Positions 1,545 through 52,952 of a stretch of DNA of 64,000 nucleotides are shown here, one piece after another (within the stretch, counting starts at the first letter, position 1; each line of letters starts with the position of its first letter). Position numbers and translations under genes: made by a program. Source of the stretch: Negaprion brevirostris (Eukaryota); assembly GCA_030324005.1 (NCBI GenBank), contig JARDVH010000115.1:2993973-3057972 (forward strand). Direction: 5' to 3'. A model generated the notes under the pieces. That model did no database searches, had not been told where the DNA came from, and saw only the letters and a program-made list of their open reading frames with translations.

Positions 1545-1613
1545 ATGCTGGATTTTAAAGGGATCTATCACTTTATCGTTGTAGGCGCGGTGCTGTCAAC
1601 TTTCTGGATTCAG
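1545..1613 (+). CDS. Jagged (JAG1/JAG2-family Notch ligand), coding exon 1, signal peptide MLDFKGIYHFIVVGAVLSTFWIQ
   Basis: ATG at 1545 (GGCATGC, purine at -3), hydrophobic signal-like stretch, donor CAG|GTATGC at 1614. Phase 0, in frame with exon 2, matching vertebrate Jagged exon 1 structure. Confidence 0.85.
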
Positions 1614-1735: not shown

Positions 1736-2035
1736 GCGGCGTTTGCAAAGGGCTATTTCCAGATCAAGTTTAACTCGGTGCAAAACGTTAACGGCGAGTT
1801 GGAGAACGGGGACTGCTGCGATGGCTCCAGGAACCCCCTGGATCGGAGGTGCACCAAGGACGAGTGCGATACCTATTTTAAAATCTGTTTGAAAGAGTAT
1901 CAGGCACGCATTACCAGCTCCGGGAGCTGCACCTTTGGGACCGTGTCCACCCCGGTGCTGGGCAAAAACACCTTCTCCGTCCCGGATAAAAGCACCGCGG
2001 GGAAAGTTGTTATCCCCTTTATGTTTGTGTGGCCG
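1736..2035 (+). CDS. Jagged (JAG1/JAG2 family; leans JAG2-like), coding exon 2, N-terminal C2/MNNL domain
   Basis: Polypyrimidine tract and CTCAG acceptor end at 1735. The 300-nt exon reads [106 protein letters not shown], [15 protein letters not shown] and PFxFxWP are Jagged/Serrate hallmarks. Donor CCG|GTAAGT at 2036. Confidence 0.96.
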
Positions 2036-2814: not shown

Positions 2815-3560
2815 ACCGGGAGTGGGACCCATTCCCTTTGCCTCCGGATTGGAAGGGGAGTGGGATCTTTCTTTGCCCCCGGAATGGAAGGGGAGTGGGA
2901 TCTATCTATTCCAATCCTGGAGCAATGGGATCTATCCCATTGCTCCAGGAGTGGAAGGGGAATGGGATTGTTCTTTGCTCCAGGATTGGAAGGGGAATGG
3001 GATCACTGTTTGCTCTCAAATCGCAAGGGGAGTGGGAATTTTCCTCTGCTATTAGATTAGGAAGGGAGGTGGGATCTCTCTATGCTTTAGAATCGCAAAG
3101 GGAATGGGATCTGTCTGCTCCAGGATCGGGAGGGGAGTGGGATCTCTCTGCTCCTGGATTATAAGGGGAGTGGGATCCAGGATTATAAAGGGATCGGGAT
3201 CTCTCTGCTCCCGGATTGTAAGGGGAGTGGGATTCCGGATTATAAGGGGAGTGGGATCTCTCTGCTCCGGGATTATAAAGGGAGTGGGATCCAGGATTAT
3301 AAGGGGAGTNNNNNNNNNNNNNNNNNNNNNNNNNNNNNNNNNNNNNNNNNNNNNNNNNNNNNNNNNNNNNNNNNNNNNNNNNNNNNNNNNNNNNNNNNNN
3401 NNNNNNNNNGGAGTGGGATTCCGGATTATAAGGGGAGTGGGATCTCTCTGCTCCTGGATTATAAAGGGAGTGGGATCCAGGATTATAAGGGGAGTGGGAT
3501 CCCTCTGCTCCAGGACCGGGAGGGGAGTGGGGGACCCCGGATTGGGAAGGAGACTGGGAT
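2815..3560. repeat. G-rich minisatellite, about 33-nt unit (AGGGGAGTGGGATCTCTCTGCTCC(T/C)GGATTATA) with about 21-nt short variants; internal gap
   Basis: Many tandem copies, homogeneous near the gap and diverged towards the left end. It explains the repetitive ORFs at 2812-3592. Confidence 0.92.
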
Positions 3561-21496: not shown

Positions 21497-21522
21497 GAAA
21501 ATGGGCTCGTTCATTATAGAGA

Positions 21523-22040
21523 CAATAAGGAATCTCACAACACCAGGTTAAAAGTCCAACAGGTTTATTTTGTAGCAAAAGCCACTAGCTTTTGGAGTGC
21601 TTGCTGCTCCTTCGTCAGGTGAGAGTTCTGTTCACAAACAGGGCATATAAAGACACAAACTTAATTTACAAAATAATGGTTGGAATGCAAATCTTTACAG
21701 GTAACTAAGTCTTAAAGGTGTACACAGTGTGAGTGGAGAGAGGGTTAAGCACAGGTTAAAGAAATGTGTATTGTCTCCAGCCAGGACAGTTACTGAGACT
21801 TTAGTGTACCTTTAAGACGACTTTACCTGTAAAGACTTGAATTCCAACCATTATTTTGTAAATTGAGTTTGTATCTTTGTATGCCCTGTTTGTGAACAGA
21901 ATTCCCACTCTCCTGATGAAGGAGCAGCAAGTGCTCTGAAAGCTAGTGTCCTTTACTACCAAATAAACCTGTTGGATTTTAACCTGGTGTTGTGAGACTC
22001 CTTACTGTGTTTACCCCAGTCCAACTCCGGCATCTCCATA
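21523..22040. mobile_element. Non-autonomous Penelope-like element: inverted pseudo-LTR pair plus about 33-nt tail, hammerhead motifs
   Basis: Inverted arms of about 200 bp (21523-~21725 and ~21804-22007). TSD TCATTATAGAGA at 21511-21522 and 22041-22052. CTGATGA...GAAA core at 21913-21941. Confidence 0.85.
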
Positions 22041-23707: not shown

Positions 23708-24246
23708 AGTAAGAAGTCTCTCAACAACAGATTAAAGTCCAACAGGTTTACTTGGTAGCAAAAGCCACCAGCTTTCAGAGTGCTGCTCCTTTGGCAGGTA
23801 AGTAGACANNNNNNNNNNNNNNNNNNNNNNNNNNNNNNNNNNNNNNNNNNNNNNNNNNNNNNNNNNNNNNNNNNNNNNNNNNNNNNNNNNNNNNNNNNNN
23901 NNNNNNNNNNNNNNNNNNNNNNNNNNNNNNNNNNNNNNNNNNNNNNNNNNNNNNNNNNNNNNNNNNNNNNNNNNNNNNNNNNNNNNNNNNNNNNNNNNNN
24001 NNNNNNNNNNNNNNNNNNNNNNNNNNNNNNNNNNACCTGTAAAGACTCGCATTCCAACCATTATTTTGTAAATTGAGTTTGTGTCTTTATATGCCCTGTT
24101 TGTGAACTGAACTCCCACTTATCTGACAAAGGAGCAGTGCTCAAAGCTAGTGGCTTTTGCTACCAAATAAATCTGTTAGACTTTAACCTGGTGTTGTGAT
24201 ACTTCTTACTGTGCTTACCTCAGTCCAACACCGGCATCTCCACATC
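23708..24246. mobile_element. Penelope-like inverted-repeat element, same family as 21523-22040; central gap
   Basis: Same arms and tail (CAGTCCAACACCGGCATCTCCACATC). Near-TSD ATCCCTATGAAAT (23695-23707) and ATCTCTATGAAAT (24247-24259). Confidence 0.85.
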
Positions 24247-26401
24247 ATCTCTATGAAATGCCAAGGCCGGGATGAATTTGAGCACAGGCATGGCCTGTTC
24301 TGACCTATGTTGCTTTCTGTTGAGCTAGTTTGAGTGCTCTTTAATTACTGTCTTTCAAAAAAACAAAATGATTGACAGTTAATGAAAATGTTACATTTTT
24401 AGATAAATCAGGACTTCCCAAATAACGTTGAAGGCTGTGTGATTTTAACCTAGTCATGTTAGTGTCATTAACTGGAGGCATAATAAGCAGCAGCATAGAT
24501 TTGACCTACTCTCCACTCTGTTCCTGTGAAAGACTTGCAGGTGCTGCGCTCCTCAGTGCATTAATTAAAGTGTATTATTATTGCCAGGGCTAATTTAATT
24601 CCCTCCTGACTCTTGAACCTGTTTGAAATGCTAACGGTTGGGGCATACAATGGTTTGAAGAGGTGGCCACATCAATACCACATGGTGTGGGGTGGGGGTA
24701 GGGCAGGGCAAAGTGTGTCAGCACTTTTCCCTGGTGTATGGCAAAGTCGTCAGACTGAGGAATATCTTGGTTGATTTGTAAGGTGAACCAACAATTTTAA
24801 TTGAAGGTGCTATATTCTTTTGGGGGTGGAGGGAGCTGGGAAGCGGGTGGAAATTGGGCTGGGGTTGAGCTTTGCATTTACCTAGGTTAAAAAGACTCTA
24901 TTTCTACAATACCTTTTATGATCTCTCAATATTCCAACTCTTTATAGCAAAGAAGTACCTTTTGAAATTTAATCACTATAAGGAACGCAGCAAGGTCCAA
25001 CTAACAGCAATGATATAATGGCCAGATAACTTTTAAGTGTTGATTAGCAATAGATGTTGACCAGGATATAGATGATGATTTCCCTGCTTTGTATTAGTGC
25101 TCGGGATCTCTTCAAGGTTAGATGTGGCCTTATCTTCAGGTGAGACACTGAACAGGTAGCTGTGATAGTATAGCACTCCTTTTGTGTGGTTTTGGGGTAT
25201 CAGTCTGGATTATGTATTTGAGCCTGAGGTTTGAAGCCACAGCTTTCTGACGGTGAGAATTCTACTTTCTAAATCATGGGTGACACATTCGTCGTGTGTG
25301 GAATGGAATACTTTCCAGTTTCAGGCAACAGGATCAGCAGCAGGATCCAGTATCCTTTGATTTTTGATCATGAACAGGATACTGTTCGTTTTGAGTCTGG
25401 ATCGAGCCTATCCAAGGTTCCTGCAATCAGCAGTTGCAGGAGAATTTCATCCTTATTGGCAAGGCCTTGATTGGTGTAGGTTCTCAAAGATAGGTTCGGG
25501 TTTAACCCATACACAGCAATCTTCCCTTGTTCGGCTGAGAGAGTTATTTCAAATAAAAAATTAAAAACAGTGCATTCAAAATGAGGTTTGGTTTTAAAAA
25601 TCTTTTTGAAATGGAGTATGTGTTCAGATTTAGTTACATTGTGCTGATATATTCCCTGTCCCTGGCAATCTTCCAATTCCTGCTCAGGTATAATTCTCAG
25701 GGTGCTGCTCTGTGACCCTCACCACACTACCTGTGCTAACCTAGAAATTGAGTGCCCTGGTTGGGATTGGATGAATGGGTGATGGCATGGGTGGAATGAA
25801 GTTCACTTCCAACAGAAATCGTAGGGACACAAGGAAAAGATTCAGCAAACCACCTTGGACCTGCTGTGCTTTCATTTCTTTATGCCCTTTCAGCTTTTGG
25901 GGAGGAAATCTGAAATCCTTACCCAGTCTGGCCTACATATGAGTCCAGACTCTGAGCAATGTGATTAACTCTTAACTACGCTCTGAAATGACCTTGCCAG
26001 TTTCTGTTGCGTCAAACCACTACAGAGAAGTCTATTAAGAATACATCTGGATGGATCATCTAGTATTGACTGGAAATGAGAAAACTGGGGGAGAGGGCAT
26101 ACAGACTAATTGAACAGCAACTGACATAATTATTACTAAATCCTGCCTGAAGCCAATGCCCCTAACTCTTCCATCACCATAGTTATGCCCTGTTCCACCA
26201 GCAGGGCAGATCCACATGAGATAGGGGCACTGTTGTATACAGTAGGCAGGAGTTTCTGGATAGTCACTGCTGGTTAACTGCACTGATACTTATACNNNNN
26301 NNNNNNNNNNNNNNNNNNNNNNNNNNNNNNNNNNNNNNNNNNNNNNNNNNNNNNNNNNNNNNNNNNNNNNNNNNNNNNNNNNNNNNNNNNNNNNNNNCTC
26401 C

Positions 26402-26443
26402 ATTCACCTGACGAAGAGGGTGTCCCCTCGAAAGCTTGTGAGT
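26402..26443 (+). ncRNA. Minimal type I hammerhead ribozyme motif in a Penelope-like pLTR remnant (26398-~26485)
   Basis: ATTCAC-CTGACGA-A-GAGGG-TGTC-CCCTC-GAAA-GC-TT-GTGAGT gives both core boxes, a 5-bp stem II and a 6-bp stem I with one G-U pair. A palindromic AAGCTT replaces stem III. Confidence 0.7.
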
Positions 26444-27419
26444 TTACTATCAAATAAATCGGTTGGACTAAAACTGGATGTTATACATCCAGAGGTGGAC
26501 ATATAACATTCCATTAGGCTGCTCCAGGGTGAGTAGAGAAATTTTTCCCAGTATCCAGGCCAGTGTTAGTGGTGATCTCGTAATAGACCACTGTTTTTTG
26601 GAGTTTGTGTGCAAATTGCCTGCGATGTTCCTTCCATTAAATGCAGTACCGACAGCTGAAAATATGTTCAGCACTTTGAAATGTCCTGAACTTAAGGCAT
26701 GAGAGAAAGCTCTTTCTTTTGTTTCCTTTGCATTTTAAAATGAATGAAATGATGATTAATTAGAAAGTTGGAAAGAGAAATGTGCTCCTTGCACCTGATA
26801 GTTATGTGAAGACTCTTTCCTTCCCTCTCTTACAGCAGTTTTGGCAGCGTGTTTGGGATGAGGCGGCAGTCAGATGGGTGAGGGTAAGATGGGCTGAGCT
26901 GTACGATGCCAATATTAGTGCTTTAGATTTCCTGTCTCTGGTTGTCTAGACTTCTCAACCACACACTGTTGTTTCTGGAGGCAGCCGCCATGTTTTTGTT
27001 TTTAGAATGGAGAGTATGTAACTTCTCACTTGTCTCCTGCCCCCAACCCACTCCCTCTCTTTTGTTTTTGAGTTTCTATCCTGTTCTGAAATTGGCACTG
27101 GCAGAAGGAGCAATCCTTCATGTGCGCACAAATCGAGAATGTCTACTGTTTATTTTGACTGAGGCTGTGGGAGAGCTTCACAATTCAGTTGCATCTTTGG
27201 CCAGTGATTTGGATGCTGGAGCCCCATCTTTGTGGGTGTCGATCACCTTGCCCTCCTTTTCACTGCCCCAATCTAAATGCTGAGTCTGTGTCACATTGGG
27301 TTCCACCTTTTAAGGAATATCTATTTGATAGACTGAGGTTCGCTAGTCCCTCTTTTTGATTTGGAGTGCCCTGCATTTGTGCTGAGGTTGTCAGCTGTTT
27401 ATTTCTCTTCCTTTTACCA

Positions 27420-31087: not shown

Positions 31088-31190
31088 GTAAGAAGTCTGA
31101 CAACGCCAGGTTTAAGTCCAACCGATTTATTTGATAGTAAACTCACAAGCTTTTGAGGTTTCCCCCTTCGTCAGGTGAATTGAGAGTACT
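31088..31190 (-). mobile_element. Penelope-like pLTR end with hammerhead motif, same subfamily as 26398-26485; truncated by gap
   Basis: The reverse complement reads ATTCACCTGACGAAGGGGGAAACCTCAAAAGCTTGTGAGTTTACTATCAAATAAATCGGTTGGAC, nearly identical to the 26402 copy. Confidence 0.8.
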
Positions 31191-44781: not shown

Positions 44782-44962
44782 ATAAACACAAAATACTGCT
44801 GGGATCTGAAACAGAATAAAGCTGGAAAATCTCAGCAGGTCTGACAGCTCCTGTGGGGAGAGAATAGAGCCAACATTTCGAGTCTGGACGACCCTTTATC
44901 AGAGCTCCACAGATGCCGTCAGATCTGTTGAGATTTTCCAGCGTTTTTCTGTTTTTATTTTG
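44782..44962. mobile_element. Short inverted-repeat Penelope-like element (second family) with decayed hammerhead motif
   Basis: GCTGGAAAATCTCAGCAGGTCTGAC pairs with GTCAGATCTGTTGAGATTTTCCAGC. The minus strand reads CTGATAA-AGGGTC-GTCCA-GACTC-GAAA-TGTT. Confidence 0.65.
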
Positions 44963-46000: not shown

Positions 46001-46505
46001 TTTAGAGATCACCTGTAGGGCGTTTACGTTTCATTGAAGACCAGTTTGTAATGACTAATCAGCTTAGTGTCATTCCATAGCACCAGCTGGATCAATCTAT
46101 CCCATTCTATATTATTTTATTTTTTTAAAAGCTGCCTTGTGATGTAGAATAACAGAACTTGTAAACCTTGACCGTGGCACATTGTCAAGTATTGTTGACA
46201 ATGTTTGGAGGCCAAATTGTTCCATTCATTGTTGACACCCTCATTTACAACAATAAGTCTGTGGAGGCTACAGAATTGTTCAGGATCTGAGTGATCTGTT
46301 TTTGTACCTTGGATAAGGAAGTTGGTGAAACACACATTCGGACTGCTGGGAGTAGCTTGAATCTACCCCCTTTAATCATTCCGGTATCCCTTTAATATTT
46401 TTACTCCATTTTTAAACTTAGTCAATAGTCCGATTCAATTCAAGGTCCCCATAAGAGAGACAAACATGATTCAAACTGACACAAGGCCTTGCACCCTCTC
46501 TTAGG

Positions 46506-46536
46506 CTTGATCTTAGCCAAAAGGCTGAGAAGTGAT
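46506..46536 (-). pseudogene. U2 snRNA 5' fragment (nt 1-31) fused to non-U2 sequence
   Basis: The minus strand ATCACTTCTCAGCCTTTTGGCTAAGATCAAG matches vertebrate U2 ATCGCTTCTCGGCCTTTTGGCTAAGATCAAG at 29/31. Both differences are at CpGs. Confidence 0.85.
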
Positions 46537-48469: not shown

Positions 48470-49660
48470 TGGAAATAGTTGAGGTCCCAGCACTGATCCT
48501 TGTAGCACTTCATAAGTTACAGCCTGCCACTCAGAAAAGAACCCATTTGTCCTGACTCTCTGCCTCCTGTTAGCTACAGGTTAAAGTCCAACAGGTTATT
48601 TGGTAGCAAAAGCTTTCGGAGTGCTGTGCCTTCGTCAGGTAAGTGGGAATGCTGTTCACAAACAGGGCATATAAAGACACACACTCAATTTTAACAAGTA
48701 GGGTAGTCCAACGCCAGTATCTCCATATCCTGTTAGCTAGCCAGTCCTTTACCTGTGCTAATATGTTAGCCCCGTAGTAACTTTGATGTGGCATCATATC
48801 AAAGTGCCCCATGTCTACAGGTTCACCTTTATCCATGTTGCTTGTTACTTTCTCAAAAAGGTCCAACAAATGGGTTAAACACAATTTCCCTTTCTTAAAA
48901 CCATATTTACATTGATCTCATTGTCATTCTGAGTTTCCTGCTATAACCTCCTTAATAATGGATTTTAGCAGTTTCCCTATGGCAGAAGTTAGGCCTTTAG
49001 TTTCCTGCTCTGTGTCTCATTTCTTGACTTGAGGTATTACATTTGCTATTTTTTTTTTTTGCTGGAACCCTTCTAGAATCTAAAGAATTTTGGAAAATTG
49101 TAACTGTTGCCTCTTCTATCTCTGCAGCCTCTCTTAGATCATAGGATGCAGGCCCTGGGGACTTGTCAGCCTTTGGGTCTAATAGTTTTTCCCAGCACTG
49201 TTTACTTGGTGATGGTGATTGTTTTACATTCCTCCCATAGAGAAGTTATAGCACTGAAGGAAGCCATTTGGCCTGTCTTTCCATGCCACCCCAAACCTTG
49301 ATTCCCAAACATATTTGGGAAGTTTACTAAGTCCTCATCGCTTACTTTTCCACTTGTCTATGTATTGTTAGAAGAATTAGTTACATCGCTCTCCCTTTAT
49401 AGTTGAGGTGCCAGTACTGATTCCTGTGTAACTTTTGCTAACCTGAAAATGACCCATTTATCCTGACATTTTTCCTGTTAGCTAATCCTCTATCCTTGCC
49501 AATTTATTACCTCAACACGATGATCTTTTGTTTATGTGGCACCTAAGAGAATGACCCCTCAATCCAAATACATCGCATTTACTTGTTCCCTTTTAGCTAC
49601 CCTACTTGGTACATCTTCAAAAAGAACTCCCAATTTGTCAAAACACTTTCTCTGTAATGT
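48470..49660 (-). mobile_element. Decayed CR1 LINE RT fragments (two partly redundant segments)
   Basis: The minus ORF CLTHLLDLFEKVTSNMDKGEPVD...DWLANR matches CR1 RT. GGTCCCAGCACTGATCC-like sequence appears at about 48482 and about 49406. Confidence 0.8.
48577..48727. mobile_element. 151-bp truncated Penelope-like element inserted in CR1
   Basis: Perfect TSD TCCTGTTAGCTA at 48565-48576 and 48728-48739. The insert holds a reversed pLTR piece plus the tail AGTCCAACGCCAGTATCTCCATA. Confidence 0.85.
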
Positions 49661-51105: not shown

Positions 51106-52900
51106 ACTGAAGACTTGAGCATAATCTTTCCACGTAACTTGCTCCTCTAAGTTTAGGAATTAGACTTGTGCTTCTCGCAAATCTTCTCCAATGCTTCTGT
51201 AATTTTTTTACTAATAATGAAGACAAATATTAAAGCTAGCACTCCCTTTGAAACAATCTCAAAGCCAGATACAACTTTTAAAATGAGTATCTTTGCTTAA
51301 TATTGGTAAGGCAGCAAAGTGGTTGAACTTGATGCTCTTTCAAGTGTTTTCTGGGATCTTTACTTAGTATAGATATGAGATGGTCAAAGAAGGAGGGCTT
51401 CAGTTTGATGCCTCATCTGTAGGACGACACCTCTGACCATGCAGCTTCCTTTCGGTGTTGCGCTGGAATGCTAGCCTCAATTGCACAGTCACATTCTGAA
51501 ATGGAAATATAGAATAAAGCATCCAACATGAGGTGATGAAAAGATTGGATTAGGAGAAGCTTTTCTTACTCATGAGGTGAGCATTATTAATAAGACAGCA
51601 ATTTTTGCCCTTAGTAATGATGTTGAGTCGCACCTTGAATACAACTGACTGTCTCACTCAGTTAGTTCGGAGGTAGTTAAGAGTTAATCACATTTCTGTG
51701 GGTCTGGGTTCACTTGTAGGCCAGGCCAGATAAGGATGGCAGATTTCCTTTCTTAAAGGACATTGTTAGTTTTTATGACATTTGAGCAACTTCACAATTG
51801 CCATGACTGATGTGGCTTTTTATTCTGATATATTTGAGCAACTGAATTTAAAGCTCCACCTGTCAGAACTCCTGTCACCTGGCCCTCTGGATTACTAATC
51901 CAGTGGCAACCATAATGACACTGAACCCCGCATTGTTCTTCTGTAAATTGAACATGATCTCACTGGGATAGACTCAGAAGGTTGAGAGGTGATGTCTTTG
52001 CTGCTGTTTATAGAATTCTAAAATGACCATGAGCAGTTGTTTCACCTTTTCCAGGAACAGAGGACACAGCCTCTACTGTGTGTGTGTTCAAAAATGTGGT
52101 CTCAATGTTTCAGTCAGTGTGTCAGGTCTGATAGTGCAGGCTCCTGAGAGGGATGATAAAAGCAGACACTATTGTCTCATTTACATGTTAATTGGTTCTG
52201 ATTTTTCTGTAGAAAATAATATTTTGGGGTTTAGTGCACAAGTATTTTGAGACGTGTGGTAAATGGAGTGGACTTAGGAAGGATTGACATCAGGTGACTT
52301 TGGACCTATGGCGGTGAGAGGCAAGTTTTTAAGAGGGTAGTGCTTAGAATGCGCTGCCAGAGAAGGTGGCAGAAGCAGATACAATAACAACATTTAAGAG
52401 GGTCTTCTTGACAGATACTTGAAGTAGAGAATAGAGGGGTACGGACTATGTAGAGGCGAAAGACATTATCTGTTGGCACAGACTTGGTGAGCTGAAGGAC
52501 CTGTTCCTATGCTGTACTTTATAGTTTCCAGAACTCTNNNNNNNNNNNNNNNNNNNNNNNNNNNNNNNNNNNNNNNNNNNTGGGTCTGTTATAGACTGGA
52601 TTGGGTGCAAGGAAACAGGAAGACTTACATTTGTATAGTGCCTATTTTTTGAAGTGGGGTTGAAGTTGAAATGTAGTAATTGCCACAATAAACCCCCACA
52701 AGCAGAGTGTGATGACCAGAGATCGGCTGTTTGTTTTACAAATAATATTGATTTGGGGATAAGTATTGAACAGGCCATTGGGAGTACTTCAAATACTGCC
52801 ATAAAATGTTGGGAGTCCTTGTTTTGAGTTGAGTTGTTGCCATGGTTTCAGCCTGCAGCTAATTTCTAATGGATAATCCCTTTCTTCCCTTCCTTCCCAG

Positions 52901-52952
52901 AGATCGTACACATTAATAGTGGAAGCATGGGATCAGGACAACGCAACAGCCA
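52901..52952 (+). CDS. Jagged coding exon 3 (RSYTLIVEAWDQDNATA plus 1 nt)
   Basis: Strong acceptor TTTCTTCCCTTCCTTCCCAG. The 52-nt exon continues WP|RSYTL-VEAWD as in JAG1/JAG2 and keeps an N-x-T sequon. Donor A|GTGAGT at 52953, phase 1. It is too short for the ORF track. Confidence 0.95.

Follow-up and report, generated by a model that had tools for sequence, protein, structure and literature searches.

The window, that is, the whole stretch of DNA analysed here, comprises 64,000 nt of Negaprion brevirostris (assembly GCA_030324005.1, contig JARDVH010000115.1, positions 2,993,973-3,057,972 of the forward strand) and contains the beginning of a Notch-ligand gene. The DSL exon of this gene lies about 15 kb past the window end, and from familiar motifs of exon 3 and of the DSL exon we take the gene to be Jagged rather than Delta. 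Near the middle of its second intron, more than 20 kb from either exon, sits a minimal type I hammerhead ribozyme motif within a fragment of a Penelope-like element (PLE). Since the end of exon 2 (2035) and the start of exon 3 (52901) are both on the plus strand, the hammerhead lies on the sense strand of intron 2, in the pre-mRNA orientation given to it by the first-pass annotation. The features of the locus are as follows:

1545..1613, plus strand: host coding exon 1, signal-peptide-like
1736..2035, plus strand: host exon 2, MNNL domain of a Notch ligand (PF07657, E 1.8e-37)
2036-52900: intron 2, 50.9 kb
21512..22038, no single strand: older-subfamily inverted pair
23709..24244, no single strand: older-subfamily inverted pair around a gap
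26296-26397, no strand: assembly gap, 102 N, true size not given by the N count
26398..26474, plus strand: young PLE terminal-repeat (pLTR) fragment, as far as it is visible
26402..26443, plus strand: minimal type I hammerhead, from sequence numbering, a strict descriptor and covariation across subfamilies
26475..26483, plus strand: 3' junction, where host DNA common to relatives starts, from comparison with related runs
31088..31190, minus strand: antisense sibling with 88% similarity to the element and a damaged GAAA box
48577..48691, minus strand: antisense older-subfamily sibling
52901..52952, plus strand: host exon 3, 52 nt

The two inverted pairs each contain a sense core. In the one at 21913 both boxes survive, stem I is poor, and pairing with its own inverted copy is predicted to cover the whole core. 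In the core of the 23709..24244 pair, both boxes are damaged. The predicted pairing with the adjoining inverted copies amounts to -268.6 kcal/mol for the 21.9-kb copy and -125.0 kcal/mol for the 24.1-kb copy. The antisense sibling at 31088..31190, 4.6 kb downstream, shares a transcript with the hammerhead copy and is complementary to it, with a predicted duplex of -113.8 kcal/mol. Other repeats are scattered over the window: a short, very high-copy repeat fragment at 25894-25987, 300 nt left of the gap, which recurs at 51666-51749; two arms of about 25 nt in inverted orientation at 44819-44944, with a weak mir-216 score on both strands, likely a small repeat element; a weak match to the 5' end of U2 snRNA at 46440-46536 on the minus strand (30.9 bits, under the Rfam cut-off), probably a truncated retrocopy; and degenerate tandem repeats at 2836-3560, near the start of intron 2, and at 9-1092, upstream of the gene.

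The hammerhead itself, with its letters and both boxes as the first-pass annotation had described them, is made up of the following parts, all on the plus strand:

26402-26407: stem I, 5' arm
26408-26414: CUGACGA box
26415: extra A, after position 9
26416-26420 / 26425-26429: stem II, 5 bp, with a 4-nt loop between
26430-26433: GAAA box
26433-26436: palindromic AGCU (15.2-16.2) in the place of helix III
26434-26437: G-C-U-U
26437/26438: predicted cut, after CUU
26438-26443: stem I, 3' arm; stem I has 6 bp

All core positions are intact, the G10.1-C11.1 pair is present, and stems I and II can form. The hallmarks of a minimal hammerhead (both boxes and UH, stems I and II, the extra nucleotide and the lack of helix III) are all found at 26402-26443, and, together with the location in a PLE terminal repeat, they bear out the earlier assignment to the minimal type I hammerheads of PLEs. 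The feature had been drawn from 26398 to 26485; the letters of the element stop at 26474. A palindrome does take the place of helix III, and it is the 4-nt AGCU; the 6-nt AAGCUU of the earlier description was rejected because pairing of A14 with U17, two positions of the established hammerhead numbering, would block the core. With a strict descriptor, which demands both boxes, a stem II of at least 4 pairs, UH and a 4-pair stem I, one match was obtained in the window against none in 200 dinucleotide shuffles, which argues that the motif does not arise by chance; it is also the sole complete core in the window, and thus the best preserved one, as had been proposed. A loose two-box pattern gave 18 matches in the window versus 7.3 expected. 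No Rfam hammerhead model matched either the whole window or the 103-nt stretch alone, and the folding energy of the hammerhead stretch is unremarkable (z 0.09). In the young subfamily, an AATAAA lies 3' of the hammerhead, here at 26453-26458, and could confound any orientation test.

The parent element was reconstructed by walking upstream through overlapping copies, so that the link from the hammerhead core to the reverse transcriptase (RT) is a chain of copies: among those examined, the exact young core and RT never occur together in one unbroken stretch. In longer copies (L051, L057), an ORF stops 218 nt before the CUGA box. It encodes a Cys-rich, zinc-finger-like linker between RT and the endonuclease (EN), found in L080, L086 and L091, and a GIY-YIG-like motif, both read by eye; Pfam scans of endonuclease pieces gave no GIY-YIG match (0/3, then 0/1). 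The RT matches PF00078 over the cut-off in two of the four pieces scanned (L114, L113), a PDB search with an RT piece returned no match, and in three of 30 loci selected by RT (L105, L114, L123) the same stretch contains a hammerhead core further downstream. The family shows the 5' truncation, inverted 5' copies and optional tail of PLEs, and its hammerhead has the terminal-repeat location expected of them. By its sequence, the element is a PLE, its layout matching that described for this class, and the linker motif, as read by eye, places it putatively in the Neptune type: the same kind of linker is described for the Neptune/Nematis-type EN+ PLEs (PMC8557442). In contrast to the Neptune-clade EN+ elements of that account, the copy in the window carries no ORF sequence and has a shortened 3' end.

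Across 77 copies from different subfamilies, the two boxes and the AGCU palindrome are retained, while stem II and its loop vary. When 16 copies were hand-picked for variety, three of the four stem II pairs changed on both sides, and when the stem II pairing was slid, the proportion of paired cells fell from 90% to 16-55%. Column shuffling yields counts of covarying pairs that the observed one does not exceed (339 of 500), and the copies, being related, lack independence; the covariation is therefore to be taken as support and not as proof. Since stem II covaries between subfamilies, the ribozyme appears to be kept by the element, and it is likely maintained by selection acting on the element.

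This family is abundant in the genome. A search with the stretch returned 1150 first-look candidates, and all 40 that were scored are 95-100% alike. The 30-nt core has 197 exact copies (95 forward and 102 reverse; none for the control), and the 25 nt downstream of it have 4192. From the core matches listed, after removal of the window locus and one duplicate, we examined 98 of the 197 loci. Among these listed matches, a gap lies within 400 nt upstream at 48/98 loci, an inverted fragment lies within 1 kb upstream at 40/98, and 39 of the 50 gap-free copies start at most 50 nt from the CUGA box. Comparison with the window copy over 77 places shows three or fewer differences in 51 of the 76 N-free exact-core loci, two of which are identical to it. 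The 3' ends cluster at about 88-101 and 124-128 nt after the CUGA box, with and without the tail, about 40 nt apart. Copies were also sampled by the downstream 25-mer, taking the first 90 of 100 matches listed, all from the initial 66 Mb of one contig: the two boxes and the two stems are all present in 15 of these, and 46 are unreadable due to gaps. Scaled to the 4192 copies, this amounts to some 700 or more intact cores, a rough lower bound because of the copies hidden by gaps.

The visible fragment, 26398..26474, begins directly behind the 102-N gap, which hides its 5' junction, and ends 37 nt past the predicted cut, some 20-25 nt short of the commonest end of the family. The gap possibly holds host DNA or an inverted copy, and could hide a tandem copy acting as a dimer partner. 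A 20-nt piece of the host DNA of relatives has no match at the window locus and one match with a single mismatch elsewhere, unrelated to the flanks; in the run containing all the sampled words, the sequence stops at 26295 and no loose letters extend into the gap. At the 3' junction, the host DNA resembles the continuation of the element, exactly over 3 letters and nearly over 8-9, which suggests joining through microhomology. The junction was likely formed in this way, judging from these few letters, and microhomology junctions are known for PLEs (PMC3846280). A hairpin of 8 bp lies right at the junction (26474-26492).

The orthologous site was compared in four related runs (X4, X10, X11 and X12; X9, without a contig over the 3' junction, was not counted). 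In all four, a contig follows the right flank from 26475-26478 and continues leftwards into mutually similar, non-PLE letters, and one X4 contig runs without a break from one flank to the other, with 192 other letters in the place of what lies between 26295 and 26475. Relative to the window, the flanks carry substitutions at 16/726 positions in X4, 32/726 in X12, 12/323 in X11 and 11/323 in X10, about 2-4%. The young family is abundant in the related runs, with, for example, 3499 contigs at least 99% alike in X4. Its abundance beside an empty site indicates that the family is shared with the relatives while the insertion in the window is not: the insertion postdates the split of the window lineage from them. 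X12 and X1 share an organism label; as the X12 flank is about 4% different, we make no claim of polymorphism within a species. The good state of the core thus reflects its youth and not conservation by the host. The comparison with other sharks proposed in the first-pass annotation therefore goes against a host-level meaning of the good preservation: no hammerhead occurs at the orthologous site in 4/4 related runs, and 197 exact cores exist in the genome. In X4 and X12 the empty site contains a small host hairpin with arms of 9 bp, part of which X10 and X11 lack; together with the 8-bp hairpin at the junction, this makes the target look prone to fold back.

Several properties of the copy make cleavage of intron 2 by the hammerhead at 26402-26443 unlikely, as far as folding predictions and related ribozymes can tell. 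The dimer helix offered by AGCU has 4 bp and a predicted energy of -2.5 kcal/mol, the predicted probability of stem I ranges from 0.35 to 1.0 depending on context, and CUU belongs to the lowest tier of cleavage triplets (PMC8879150, citing an earlier study). Single minimal hammerheads gave no detectable cleavage, and their dimers had low activity (PMC4209133). Pairing with another sense copy, suggested earlier as a possible route to a cut, finds little basis in this intron, as the two other visible sense copies are impaired and each adjoins its own inverted copy. The closest functional comparison is PAc Poseidon of Anolis (PMC11167929), which resembles the present case in having a hammerhead near the pLTR-ORF junction and differs in belonging to another PLE clade and in that its ORF starts in stem II. 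In that study, the ribozyme is active in vitro only with the element's protein, about 172 nt of the ORF start are needed in the RNA for transposition, and no RNA-seq reads are reported to end at the cut site.

Two genome-level proxies were examined for traces of cleavage, and both are negative. The sense strand of intron 2 has a positive strand skew (0.05-0.20); measured on the ribozyme strand at the exact-core loci among the matches listed, the mean skew is -0.002 (s.e. 0.007, n = 96 of 98, two dropped for gaps), and no depletion of sense copies is seen. Beyond an absolute skew of 0.08, 10 of these 96 loci are sense-like versus 9 antisense-like; the proxy is crude, since sense copies would have to be almost entirely lost for it to respond, and a skew as strong as that of this intron is rare among the loci. 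As for 5' ends, none of 40 copies starts exactly at the cut site, in what is a small sample from the first 66 Mb of one contig, from which 50 of the 90 copies were set aside as beginning at a gap; 7/40 start within +27 to +31 versus 27 spread over +19 to +40. One in 77 other fragments has its 5' end at the cut site. A peak of 5' ends there, as a fossil of cleavage, was thus found in neither sample. A start cluster at the edge of stem I was also discarded: 5/77 fragments begin 4 nt before the box, the cluster is absent from the 40-copy sample, and three of the five are old copies, for which the alignment to the young reference may simply stop there.

We consider it very probable that the hammerhead belongs to the terminal repeat of a Neptune-type PLE, inserted in intron 2 of Jagged after the split from the relatives and likely inert. 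The stub would have been made by reverse transcription primed near the end of the element's RNA, and joined to its target via microhomology. In active elements, selection would keep the ribozyme, whose folding there likely requires either a tandem dimer or the protein encoded by the element. A single stub in an intron of 51 kb, without helix III, a partner or the protein-binding ORF start, would seldom if ever cleave before the intron is spliced out, and would be expected to erode as the neighbouring older copies have done.

That the protein of an active PLE, or a tandem copy hidden by the gap, folds the hammerhead, so that the Jagged pre-mRNA is cut in intron 2, is improbable in our view: the core is intact and on the sense strand, the family was recently active and the Anolis precedent (PMC11167929) shows cleavage with the protein, but the ORF start required downstream by that protein is missing from a stub that ends 37 nt past the site, neither proxy gives a sign of cleavage, and the visible sense partners are damaged and sequestered. 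A broader version, in which hundreds of intact sense PLE hammerheads in introns are switched on in trans by the element protein in the germ line or embryo and cut pre-mRNAs, seems to us very improbable; if it were true, cutting of Jagged intron 2 would be a transposon-controlled, species-specific brake on Notch-ligand output. We attach slightly less credence still to a role of the copy in the host solely as double-stranded RNA, in which a duplex with the 31088-31190 sibling, or with an inverted copy hidden by the gap, would be edited or would affect splicing. The predicted duplex with that sibling and the inverted fragments found upstream of sibling loci speak for such a structure; its arms, however, are 77 nt long, 4.6 kb apart and more than 20 kb from either exon.

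Domestication by the host can practically be dismissed. An intact core on the sense strand of a developmental gene recalls the amniote intronic hammerheads (RECK and others; PMC6155905, PMC10761166), which are likewise intronic and of type I. These are described as conserved in birds and mammals and as cleaving alone, whereas the hammerhead in the window is lineage-specific, multicopy and minimal; its site is empty in all the related runs, its exact core is repeated elsewhere in the genome, and it has neither helix III nor a match to the Rfam hammerhead models.

The PLE terminal repeat, likely inert, represents without special features the class of minimal hammerheads of metazoan PLEs that was described in 2014 (Cervera and De la Peña 2014, PMC4209133). 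Its stem II has 5 bp, compared with 7-8 bp in Schistosoma, and the hosts named in the relevant part of that article are teleosts, coelacanth, Xenopus and reptiles, with sharks not among them. Non-LTR retrozymes carry type I hammerheads related to those of PLE pLTRs, reported in one chondrichthyan genome (bioRxiv 10.64898/2026.07.22.740005); in that description, retrozymes form tandem arrays of at least two hammerhead units, whereas no tandem young copy is visible at the window site, where the gap hides the 5' side. Our literature search found no paper devoted to shark PLE hammerheads, and the supplements of PMC4209133 and of the 2026 preprint may list sharks. As it stands, the copy matters little, being one of about 700 or more intact cores of a known class. 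It has a modest use as a test case, at one defined site, of whether a PLE minimal hammerhead ever cuts host RNA in vivo, since close relatives supply the empty allele. A young sense copy within 150 nt occurs at one of the 98 exact-core loci among the matches listed: at this locus (L166, the same as L028; G000:C59:96661211-96671210), two young sense hammerheads lie 148 nt apart, together with an inverted copy, and of the natural loci encountered it is the most suitable for testing dimers.
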